A stretch of DNA of 45,103 bases from a virus (Duplodnaviria; Heunggongvirae; Uroviricota; Caudoviricetes), in the IMG/VR virus record IMGVR_UViG_2734482790_000002; one strand, given 5' to 3'. Shown here piece by piece: positions 18,400-23,636 of the stretch. How positions within the stretch are numbered: the first letter of the stretch is position 1; each line of letters begins with the position of its first letter. The translations under genes were made by a program, and so were the position numbers. The notes under the pieces were generated by a model. That model saw nothing but the letters and a program-made list of their open reading frames with translations, was not told the DNA's origin and did not search any database.

Positions 18400-18476
18400 G
18401 CGGGTATCGTATAATGGCCATTACCTCAGCTTTCCAGGCTGATGATGTGGGTTCGATTCCCGCCACCCGCTCTCCA
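18400..18476 (+). tRNA. tRNA-Gly(UCC)-like gene, possibly degenerate at the 3' end
   Basis: cloverleaf: acceptor gcgggta, D-arm gtat-aatggcca-ttac, anticodon arm tcagc-ttTCCag-gctga, T-arm gtggg-ttcgatt-cccgc; near-identical to E. coli glyT as I recall it; A7:C66 mismatch and 3' tail tCTCCA rather than CCA. Confidence 0.6.
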
Positions 18477-22058: not shown

Positions 22059-22080
22059 CTGGCTGTGATGCCTGTTTGTA

Positions 22081-22105
22081 GCCCCGCAAATGCGGGGCTT
22101 TTTTA
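22081..22105 (+). terminator. Rho-independent terminator
   Basis: gccccgca-aa-tgcggggc hairpin followed by T6. Confidence 0.7.
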
Positions 22106-22114
22106 TATCTGGAG

Positions 22115-22513
22115 ATGATGATGGAAAAAACAGAAAACAAACCTGTTGCAATTGGTGCTGATGCTGCTCCGTTTAAGTTTGAGTTGTCTCAACTGGTGGA
22201 GATGCGCATCAGTGATGAATGGGGTGAGGTTAAAGCCCGCGCGCAGTATGCGGATGGCGAAAACCAGTACTTGATCCACTACAAGGCTGCAGATGGTCGC
22301 GCCACGACGCAGTGGTTTGGTGAGTCAATGCTGGAAGCAACAGAAGATGATCGCCATCCGGGCTGTCCGGTATTTGCCGGTATGAAATTACCGGAAGGTG
22401 CAGTTGAACTGCAGCCGGGTGAGGTGTTCGTAATGTCAGAAGTCATTGATGGTAAACCGCAGTATTCGCGTATTGAAATGAATAGTAAGAGTGCTCGCCT
22501 GATTCGTGAGTAA
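22115..22513 (+). CDS. hypothetical soluble protein (132 aa)
   Basis: ggag SD; followed by a perfect 14-bp inverted-repeat hairpin. Confidence 0.5.
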   Translation: MMMEKTENKPVAIGADAAPFKFELSQLVEMRISDEWGEVKARAQYADGENQYLIHYKAADGRATTQWFGESMLEATEDDRHPGCPVFAGMKLPEGAVELQPGEVFVMSEVIDGKPQYSRIEMNSKSARLIRE

Positions 22514-22560
22514 CAGGCATTACAGCAGCCCTTCACTCTAAGGGGCTGCTGTAATGTGAG

Positions 22561-22593
22561 AAATAAAAAACCGGTCCAGCTACACAGAACCGG
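22561..22593 (-). terminator. candidate minus-strand intrinsic terminator (weak)
   Basis: on the minus strand, a ccggt...accgg hairpin is followed by ttttttattt. Confidence 0.35.
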
Positions 22594-22686
22594 CCGGCGA
22601 AGACCGCCAATACCACCCATGCATTGATGCAACATACTAATGACAATAGCCGCTATTGATGTAAATGCAATGTTATGCATCGACGA

Positions 22687-22728
22687 AAATAAAAAACCGG
22701 CAGGGGAAATCCATTGAAGACTTGCCGG
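22687..22728 (-). terminator. candidate minus-strand intrinsic terminator, second copy of the same tail motif
   Basis: on the minus strand, a ccggcaag...cctgccgg hairpin is followed by ttttttattt; shares aaataaaaaaccgg with the first copy. Confidence 0.4.
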
Positions 22729-22900
22729 TGGCAAAAGTTGCCAATGCTTTTATAACCGTAGTCACAGAGTTACGAAGTGCAACACCGAATGCTGCTGGTA
22801 TATGGATGAATGGCGTTTCAATGATTTTCATCAATTTATTCATCAGCAATGGTGATAATCACTCTCATTTGTGCGGGTCCTTCCGGTGGGGGGGCCTGCC

Positions 22901-22920
22901 ACGGGGCGGCAGCGGCGCGG
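22901..22920. other. cos site (cosN-like cohesive-end region)
   Basis: ACGGGGCGGCAGCGGCGCGG closely resembles the lambda cosN sequence as I recall it (ACGGGGCGGCGACCTCGCGGG); lies about 170 bp upstream of the Nu1-like terminase gene. Confidence 0.6.
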
Positions 22921-22938
22921 AAAACGGCTAGTTTTTGC

Positions 22939-23083
22939 ATTTTCATGGTGGCGGCAGCATGTGATGTAATTTATTGATAATTAAAAGCTATTTCCATTTT
23001 CACCTGTACAATATTTTTTTCTCCCTGTCATTAGACCAGTTTGCAATTCATTGAAATATATAAATAAACCTGATTTTCACCTG
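22939..23083. repeat. cosB-like repeated elements (candidate terminase small-subunit binding sites)
   Basis: attttcatggtg (about 22939-22950), attttcacctg (about 22996-23006) and attttcacctg (about 23073-23083). Confidence 0.45.
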
Positions 23084-23087
23084 CCAG

Positions 23088-23636
23088 ATGGAGTTGCTTA
23101 TGTCAAATGTGAGCGGGATCGGTGATGCTTATTACTGGAGTGTTTTTAAAATCGCCGAGGCCTTTGGGCTTCACCGGGACACAGTAAAAAAACGGCTCCT
23201 CGCGGCCAACACTCCTGTGGCTGCGACTGTCAGGGGGAACCCCGTTTACGCCCTGCAGCATGTCGGGCCTGCCCTGTTTAGTGTGAAGCATGAGGCAGCA
23301 GACTCTGTTCATGATCCATCCCGTATGGAGCCGAAAGAGAGAAAGGACTGGTACCAGTCTGAAAATGAAAGGATCAAGCTGGAAAAGGAGCAGCGAAAAC
23401 TCATCCCCGTTGATGAAGTAGTCATCGTCTATTCGTCCATGAGAAAGGCTGTCGTCCAGGTTCTGGAGACAATTCCGGATGTTCTTGAACGCGATTGCGC
23501 CCTGACTCCTCAGGCCGTCGGCGTTGTACAGCAGGCCATTGATGACCTGCGATACACTCTTCAGGAAAAATCCTACGAGGCTTGTGCTGCTGAATTAATT
23601 CCTGATGAGGAAGGAGAGAGTCTCCAGGAGGAATAA
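23088..23636 (+). CDS. terminase small subunit (Nu1-like, N-terminal HTH)
   Basis: 182 aa; immediately upstream of and overlapping the large subunit; preceded by the cos-like region. Confidence 0.7.
   Translation: MELLMSNVSGIGDAYYWSVFKIAEAFGLHRDTVKKRLLAANTPVAATVRGNPVYALQHVGPALFSVKHEAADSVHDPSRMEPKERKDWYQSENERIKLEKEQRKLIPVDEVVIVYSSMRKAVVQVLETIPDVLERDCALTPQAVGVVQQAIDDLRYTLQEKSYEACAAELIPDEEGESLQEE

Follow-up and report, generated by a model that had tools for sequence, protein, structure and literature searches.

Results

Organisation of the region left of cos

The window (the whole stretch of viral DNA analysed here, 45,103 nucleotides, IMG/VR record IMGVR_UViG_2734482790_000002) comes from a lambdoid prophage of E. 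coli, and its positions 22500-22910 show 100% identity with E. coli strain R1 (NZ_CP031706, 1851613-1852023); E. coli SE11 is a further carrier of the locus. The base at 22904 is the first of both the Tritos and the cdtI phage record, which places the cosN cohesive-end site at this position, where a sequence-only reading of the region had assumed cos to be; the cos of the window is directly comparable with the lambda-type cos of DLP12 (Table 1). Right of cos lie the gene for a DUF1441/Nu1-type small terminase (23088-23636) and then the large terminase gene; left of the region, downstream of the lysis cassette, are small plus-strand accessory genes, including the upstream neighbour (22115-22513), whose stop codon stands just before a plus-strand hairpin, H0. 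The final 340 bp before cos are the extreme right end of the packaged linear chromosome (the cdtI record finishes with this segment), and contain two leftward hairpins with U-rich tails, TA and TB. Across an A/T tract, H0, as a structured 3' element of the late transcript, and the two leftward terminators point towards each other.

About 150 related loci were compared, taken from viral contigs, E. coli genomes, phage records and metagenomes. None of the inspected genome and phage records annotates an RNA feature for the cassettes described below, and annotators disagree on the region, calling small plus-strand ORFs, a minus-strand ORF, or nothing.

Table 1 Features of the region left of cos (window coordinates).
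Feature	Coordinates	Strand	Description
H0	22517..22557	+	Stem of 17 bp, loop of 7 nt; follows closely on the upstream gene's stop codon
Direct repeat, copy 1	22561..22574	-	AAATAAAAAACCGG; stem base CCGG of TA and tail UUUUUUAUUU
Putative RNA-A	22563..22637	-	Placed from the promoter-like element and TA
TA terminator hairpin	22571..22597	-	Reads CCGGCCGGUUCUGUGUAGCUGGACCGG, U-tract directly 3'
Module A	22575..22700	-	Optional 126-bp cassette flanked by the 14-bp direct repeat; absent from cdtI-type phages
Small hairpin of module A	22596..22608	-	GGCGGUCUUCGCC; immediately 5' of TA, forms with it a double-hairpin 3' module
Promoter-like element, module A	22643..22670	-	-35 TTGCAT (22670-22665), N16, -10 TATTGT (22648-22643)
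52-aa CDS, probably spurious	22673..22831	-	PGAP WP_157777103.1 (MKIIETPF...), annotated in E. coli R1
Direct repeat, copy 2	22687..22700	-	Stem base of TB and U-tail
Module B	22688..22870	-	Non-coding segment tied to the left half of cos
TB terminator hairpin	22697..22728	-	Two-tier stem, 7 + 5 bp, then UUUUUUAUUU
Small hairpin of module B	22729..22743	-	UGGCAACUUUUGCCA; immediately 5' of TB, layout as in module A
Weak promoter-like element, module B	22755..22782	-	-35 TTGCAC (22782-22777), N16, -10 TACGGT (22760-22755)
cosQ-like motif and cosN start	22875..22915	+	GGGTCCT (22875-22881), cosN start 22904; from phage record starts and comparison with the DLP12 cos

H0, a structured element of the late transcript

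The fold of H0 reaches −29.1 kcal/mol (z −6.3). Across 17 haplotypes, 92.6% of the base-pair cells are paired and four pairs show compensatory double changes, values reached by 0-1 of 500 shuffles. Its G·U pairs are valid on the plus strand only, and folding on that strand is favoured by 1-7 kcal/mol in all haplotypes; no U-tract follows the hairpin. H0 is a structured element of the late (plus-strand) transcript and, with real covariation, the best-supported structured RNA element of the region. It marks the left boundary of a cos-proximal non-coding mosaic, at whose left edge differing upstream genes are joined. A search of 22500-22900 against all 4227 Rfam families (a set not known to include AsxR, AgvB or Pas models) gave no match at the gathering score, and at E ≤ 10 only chance-level matches to Twister-P5 and mir-2756, over H0.

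Two probable leftward terminators

The 14-mer AAATAAAAAACCGG occurs exactly twice in the window, the copies being 126 bp apart (the chance expectation with two or fewer mismatches is 0.44 matches), and each copy supplies the stem base and the tail of a minus-strand hairpin, as the sequence-only reading had described. Both strands of the whole window were scanned with a d'Aubenton-Carafa-type score of hairpin and tail, which gave d = 23.0 for TA, second among the minus-strand sites of the 45 kb, and d = 12.7 for TB. In four dinucleotide shuffles of the window, again over both strands, the number of sites reaching d ≥ 12.7 was 0, 0, 0 and 1, and d ≥ 23 was never reached. A pair of such sites on a single strand, in gene-free sequence and with a spacing of 126 bp, is not due to chance, in agreement with the earlier description of both as terminator-like. 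In both, a stable G+C-rich hairpin stands 0-2 nt before a U-rich tract, the arrangement that defines an intrinsic terminator.

The hairpins had been called modest, with stems of 5-8 bp and long loops, a description that had to be revised: the stem of TA has 8-9 bp and ends directly at the U-tract, and that of TB is built in two tiers (7 + 5 bp). TA together with the small hairpin upstream of it folds at −16.9 kcal/mol over 46 nt (z −2.75) and TB at −13.5 kcal/mol (z −2.4); the energies range from −13 to −17 kcal/mol for TA and from −11 to −13.5 kcal/mol for TB, each hairpin being followed by U6AU3. In 20 of 20 haplotypes TA folds more stably on the minus strand than on the plus strand, by 2-8.5 kcal/mol (−16.9 versus −9 kcal/mol in the window); the TB region folds slightly better on the plus strand (−15.5 versus −13.5 kcal/mol).

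Conservation of the motif in related prophages, which had been proposed as a check, was examined for both hairpins. TB is nearly invariant in 132 loci, its variants being loop changes or replacements of G·U by A-U. In TA the stem base and the tail are conserved across 20 haplotypes and the loop carries indels of 8 and 5 nt; the substitutions exchange G·U with A-U or U-A with U·G, and keep pairing on the minus strand only. The commonest TA haplotype (22 loci) has one stem-breaking G to C change, and an alternative hairpin still abuts the U-tract. Most pair-preserving changes in TA and TB are one-sided (G·U/A-U), accompanied by loop indels, and two-sided changes number zero. A divergent TB in PhiR5_1, which immediately follows the stop codon of Rz at a distance of about 300 bp from cosQ, retains the two tiers of the stem (by manual pairing of the sequence, not by a computed fold). 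Taken as a whole, TA and TB are probably genuine terminators, and their orientation is that of the minus strand.

The TB loop is itself invariant, for which terminator function gives no explanation; that TB hardly varies even in its loop could be due to recent common ancestry at a recombination junction instead of to selection. A long-range pairing between the TB loop and the block 22817-22829 was considered and rejected, the variants of the TB loop being without compensation.

A mosaic of independently assorting modules

H0, module A, module B and cosB assort independently. In phage cdtI and many prophages, H0 plus GTGAGGAATAAAAAACCGG is fused straight to module B and module A is absent. Module A is thus present or absent between identical flanks, the alternative states meeting at the 14-bp repeat, which is therefore the junction of an insertion or a deletion; the repeat is a common terminator tail as well as a recombination junction. 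Of 5426 complete E. coli genomes, 126 carry module A, without exception at full length and with 88-100% identity. A scan of genome contigs detected no module A in species representatives other than E. coli, and a metagenome scan returned only the known haplotypes, with zero new module A variants.

Module B is present in 305 of the 5426 E. coli genomes. The distribution of these sequences is confined to E. coli (2-6% of complete genomes), no other species representative carrying them. Module B haplotypes differ by indels of 1-2 nt, the distance between TB and cosQ is fixed at 139-141 bp, and beyond cosN, to the right, this one module is combined with at least five unrelated cosB/terminase types. 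The module consists of two variable blocks (22738-22812 and 22825-22862) and two invariant ones (TB and 22810-22826), and RNAalifold detected no covarying structure in it outside TB. Between flanks that are 25-45% divergent, the block 22810-22826 shows no variation, another observation that terminator function does not explain. An inverted repeat flanking cos, TCATTGAAA, was discarded as a general feature: it occurs twice in the window, and the right copy accompanies only this cosB type.

Coding potential

The sequence-only reading saw no convincing minus-strand gene here, a judgement borne out by the comparison of haplotypes, in which no frame is conserved on either strand. It had taken 22279-22734 for the only reverse ORF, and so missed a second one (22673-22849), from which PGAP calls the 52-aa CDS of E. 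coli R1. This CDS is not annotated in three other inspected E. coli records, no Shine-Dalgarno sequence was seen upstream of it, and it reads through TB and its U-tract. The in-frame ATG and the IIETPF motif occur in nearly all of 49 haplotypes (three lack the exact anchor); the ORF remains in frame for about 28 codons and then passes through TB in three different frames, with one haplotype stopping at codon 26. Over the variable blocks of module B, pN/pS lies between 0.55 and 1.4 in all six frames, so that no frame is under gene-like purifying selection. Pfam and PHROG scans of the ORFs of both strands returned only PHROGs of automatically called ORFs that span cos, and a search of the minus-strand ORF for Pfam DUF3950 returned no family. 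In module A no ORF ends before TA, and the variants shift the frame. The region is non-coding on both strands; the 52-aa CDS, like the small plus-strand ORFs called here in phage records, is probably spurious.

Putative promoters

The promoter search proposed for the minus strand had a divided outcome. A simple consensus scan (threshold 9/12) found zero minus-strand promoters in the region; weak conserved elements, with 7/12 and 6/12 consensus matches, were found in modules A and B, respectively. The module A element has a PWM score of 8.5 (top 0.14% of window positions), and its hexamers are invariant or nearly so in 32 haplotypes, except for position 3 of the -10, with variation at spacer positions 12, 14 and 15. 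The module B element scores 5.5-8.4 (about the top 1%), which by itself is not significant; within module B it is the sole element at a constant position in nearly all haplotypes, its -10 being TAAGGT in most of them and its general form TTG(C/A)AC-N16-TA(A/C)(G/A)GT, with TTG-AC and TA--GT invariant and 9 of the 16 spacer columns variable. The chance of finding such PWM scores within 100 bp is p ~0.13 for 8.5 and ~0.5 for ~6.

The best leftward PWM site (TGGAAA-N17-TAAATT, 22996-22968, score 10.0) lies right of cos, in an AT-rich cosB segment that is swapped among at least five unrelated types beside the same module B. This site was therefore rejected as a conserved promoter for TB, and the earlier proposal that transcripts start near cos is not supported: the conserved promoter-like elements are found only inside the modules, 75-110 bp upstream of each terminator.

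Predicted RNAs

We infer a start for RNA-A 6-8 nt after the -10 element and an end at the TA tail, which gives a predicted length of about 74 nt in the window and about 82 nt in the majority haplotype. The RNA-A model comprises three hairpins and 16 pairs, with 93.3% of the base-pair cells paired over 28 haplotypes; in the hairpin GGCGGUCUUCGCC, which RNAalifold also predicts, the figure is 99.3% over the same number of haplotypes. The changes in RNA-A exchange G·U with A-U, U·G with C-G and U-A with U·G, and maintain pairing in the minus-strand RNA alone, many of the G·U pairs being A·C on the plus strand. One pair varies as A-U, G·U and G-C, the sole two-sided change, among haplotypes that are few and related; with so few independent events, the support that these changes give to the minus strand is modest.

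RNA-B would be about 60 nt long (22748 to 22689) and consist of the small hairpin plus TB. Both units have a double hairpin (the small hairpin and a CCGG-based terminator) followed by U6AU3, and the RNA-A covariance model aligns weakly to 22765-22687 (15.9 bits, E = 0.08). Upstream of the tail, the similarity of RNA-A and RNA-B in a global alignment is not above that of shuffles (p ~0.2), and common descent of the two units is therefore not shown. Tested against all start regions in the window, neither RNA-A nor RNA-B gave better duplex energies than shuffled RNAs.

Comparison with known systems

TA and TB resemble the intrinsic terminators of E. coli and its phages in having a G+C-rich stem that ends at the six U of UUUUUUAUUU, and their scores are within the range of the plus-strand late-operon terminators of the window (e.g. 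22080-22106). They are unlike them in pointing against the only neighbouring genes; moreover, where 3-8 nt is usual, the loop is long or two-tiered in TB and in most TA haplotypes.

Leftward genes are found immediately left of cos, opposite to the terminase strand, in the K-12 prophages DLP12 (ylcI) and Qin (ynfO), both encoding DUF3950 proteins; given the same site and orientation, this position is a recurrent accessory insertion slot. These genes encode proteins of 64-77 aa, presumably ribbon-helix-helix-like (as judged by eye), whereas module B has neither similarity to them nor a conserved ORF. Lambda OOP RNA, 77 nt long, is made in lysogens from a promoter of its own up to an intrinsic terminator. 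Over its full length it is antisense to a longer phage transcript; it covers the 3' end of cII and causes a coding mRNA to be cut by RNase III. For the predicted RNA-A and RNA-B, unlike OOP, the antisense partner would be only an untranslated stretch of the late transcript.

As cited in PMC4104026, the term moron denotes additional DNA, equipped with a promoter and a terminator, that separates sequences adjoining each other in related phages (Juhala et al. 2000). Module A is extra DNA of this kind, with a terminator and a promoter-like element; it contains no protein-coding gene and, unlike morons, being 126 bp long without an ORF, could encode RNA only. AsxR and AgvB, the anti-sRNAs of EHEC, are 51-60 nt RNAs encoded in lambdoid prophages convergently with the late transcript (Tree et al. 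2014, PMC4104026), with about 42 nt of high conservation at the 3' side and variable sequence at the 5' side (PMC4104026). The predicted RNA-B, with a conserved 3' part of about 50 nt and variable sequence upstream, is similar to them. Theirs is a moron site just downstream of PR' and not beside cos (PMC4104026), and identity of the present locus with AsxR/AgvB was rejected on this account. The Pas sRNAs of EPEC are prophage-encoded, Escherichia-restricted, patchily distributed and multi-variant, and end in a stem-loop and poly-U (Pearl Mizrahi et al. 2021; Zhu, Shabalina and Storz 2026; PMC8550237; bioRxiv 10.64898/2026.05.13.724894), all of which are traits that they share with the cassettes. 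PasA, PasC and PasD, however, are near the Q, holin and lysozyme genes and PasB maps between the tail genes I and J in E2348/69; none is at cos, and the locus was not assigned to the Pas sRNAs. In working principle, the closest analogues of the predicted RNAs would be lambda OOP and the anti-sRNAs.

Discussion

The reading that we favour, tentatively and with less than even confidence, is that TA and TB end two short non-coding RNAs from internal weak promoters. The 340 bp left of cos would then be two tandem, independently assorting leftward non-coding units, 'RNA morons' set against the rightward late operon. Each unit would begin with a weak promoter of the sigma-70 type (TTGCA[T/C]-N16-TA..GT), continue with a short body and close with a 3' module in which the small hairpin, the CCGG-based terminator hairpin and UUUUUUAUUU follow one another. 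The predicted product of module A, with its end at TA, would measure about 74-82 nt, and that of module B, with its end at TB, about 60 nt. At the 14-bp tail common to both, module A would have recombined in or been lost. One or two leftward small RNAs had already been suggested by the sequence-only reading, and this part of it is still the best account of the terminators and of the non-coding region; the start near cos did not stand. The likeliest function would be that of a short antisense or Hfq-type regulatory RNA in the lysogen, which may act in cis on the late transcript, as OOP does, or in trans, as do the prophage anti-sRNAs.

The main rival, possible but in our opinion rather doubtful, is that the terminators are genuine but orphaned, without a dedicated RNA: either relics of decayed leftward morons (ylcI, ynfO or bor-like), or insulators, which would keep stray antisense transcription out of the lysis and late-control region. 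The high divergence of module B, its frameshifting indels and its pN/pS near 1 are as expected in decay, the ATG-led ORF with its conserved start could be a relic, the promoters are weak and the commonest TA haplotype is weakened, and intact leftward genes occupy the same site in DLP12 and Qin. Nevertheless, TB and the promoter-like hexamers are conserved within variable sequence, module A is uniformly full length and closely similar in its 126 genomes, substitutions keep minus-strand pairing, and no homologous intact gene was found for module A or module B. A minus-strand small protein (22673-22831), with TB inside the 3' end of its gene, is highly unlikely: the PGAP call, the ATG and IIETPF present in nearly all haplotypes, and a pN/pS of 0.55 in its frame over 22753-22824 speak for it, but a plus-strand frame has an equal pN/pS, a strong terminator with its U-tract lies within an ORF with no Shine-Dalgarno sequence seen, the reading frame disperses after about 28 codons or stops at codon 26, and it has neither a Pfam or PHROG family nor an annotation in the three other inspected E. 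coli records.

We also consider improbable a role at the DNA level or on the plus strand, as a recombination boundary, a cos/packaging accessory site, or an element of late-mRNA processing or stability together with H0. Such a role would agree with the fixed distance between TB and cosQ, with the invariance of the block 22810-22826 and of the TB loop beyond terminator function, with the position of the 14-bp repeat exactly at the module A junction, with the clear plus-strand character of H0, and with the slightly better plus-strand fold of the TB region (−15.5 versus −13.5 kcal/mol). On the other hand, Tritos, DLP12 and PhiR5_1, which have the same kind of cos, lack module B or have TB about 300 bp from cosQ, the inverted pair TCATTGAAA surrounds cosN only with the cosB type of the window, and the complementarity of the TB loop and the invariant block is uncompensated in loop variants. 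A perfect U6AU3 after each hairpin, twice, is likewise unexpected for a DNA site, and TA is much weaker on the plus strand (−9 versus −16.9 kcal/mol).

Within the reading of two short RNAs, a more specific version, which is speculative and which we judge improbable, would make A and B unrelated but similarly built sRNA genes, swapped between lambdoid phages via their CCGG-U6AU3 tails, as cassettes that run from promoter to terminator, and acting, when expressed from the prophage, like OOP or the anti-sRNAs. Pairing with the untranslated late segment between H0 and cos would lead to processing that uncouples the lysis mRNA from the terminase/head mRNA; alternatively, RNA-A and RNA-B may sponge host sRNAs. 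If this were true, lambdoid prophages would have a second conserved sRNA insertion site, beside the PR' site.

Prophage sRNAs (AsxR, AgvB, Pas, DicF and others) rewire host regulation, and to our knowledge have so far been found at only a few fixed lambdoid positions. Judged from its sequence, the locus left of cos is a candidate for a further sRNA site of prophages and a neat junction within the mosaic, not surprising in kind. Should the terminators be relics, the result would still be useful for annotation, the 52-aa CDS and the small plus-strand ORFs being probably spurious. Should the cos-adjacent antisense RNA cassettes be real, they would add a new position to those of the prophage sRNAs, and a non-coding 'moron' whose terminator tail doubles as a recombination junction.

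An apparent recombination break at the cohesive-end site

Module B, the non-coding segment that ends in the minus-strand terminator hairpin TB, forms with the cosQ-like site the left half of cos. Across cosN, this one left half is followed by cosB/small-terminase segments of at least five unrelated types (window 22904-23090 against the compared loci). The window and E. coli R1 are identical left of cosN and different just right of it. The packaging site (cosN) looks like the place of a sharp recombination break. The cosB of the window carries direct repeats containing ATTTTCA, which are probably R-like binding sites for the small terminase in this cos type; an extra copy, TGATTTTCA (22822-22830), lies left of cosN and is present only in the block-4 haplotype of the window.

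Features in the window and in two K-12 prophages (L141, DLP12; L142, Qin; coordinates of the respective locus).
Feature	Position	Strand	Remarks
Terminator, GCCCCGCAAATGCGGGGC then T-run	22080-22106	+	intrinsic; d=49.7
H0, 17-bp hairpin	22517-22557	+	3' of stop codon of gene 22115-22513
Invariant block TGGCGTTTCAATGAT	22810-22826		within module B; haplotype comparison
cosB direct repeats	22934-23083	+	contain ATTTTCA
Copy TTTGCATTTTCA	22934	+	
Copy TTTCCATTTTCA	22991	+	
Copies ATTTTCACCTG	22996 and 23073	+	
tRNA-Gly (anticodon TCC)	18400-18472	+	phage-borne; upstream of lysis region
IS009 (Rfam)	44865-45063	+	full-length; 223.7 bits, gathering score 117
ylcI (DUF3950)	L141 4252-4446	opposite terminase genes	immediately left of cos
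ynfO (DUF3950)	L142 4757-4990	opposite terminase genes	immediately left of cos

Module B and the genes in its slot in K-12

The block TGGCGTTTCAATGAT was unchanged in all 49 module-B haplotypes (49/49), whereas the flanking blocks diverge by 25-45%. Read on the minus strand, the block has an in-frame ATG ahead of it in every case. Two explanations for it, pairing with the TB loop and a cos-flanking repeat, failed when tested. In K-12, ylcI and ynfO occupy a slot and an orientation identical to those of module B; the proteins encoded, YlcI and YnfO, look ribbon-helix-helix-like.

Other RNA elements and the late operon

The IS009 match is located close to the right-hand end of the window and overlaps the ORF 44522-45103; its identity with PasB, the prophage sRNA of E2348/69, was rejected because the PasB region of that strain has no Rfam match. 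The left boundary of the cos-proximal non-coding mosaic is marked by the hairpin H0, in which the haplotype comparison revealed four compensatory base-pair changes and G·U pairs that work on the plus strand only; no U-tract follows it on the 3' side, and H0 probably serves in the processing or the stability of the late transcript. No intrinsic terminator anywhere in the window is stronger than the one at 22080-22106, which lies within the late operon, shortly before gene 22115-22513. The Rfam sRNA matches there (GcvB, OmrA-B) were weak and sub-threshold, and appear to reflect the terminator only. Given such a strong terminator inside the operon, the late transcript would extend into the terminase genes only with antitermination, which is presumably Q-mediated.
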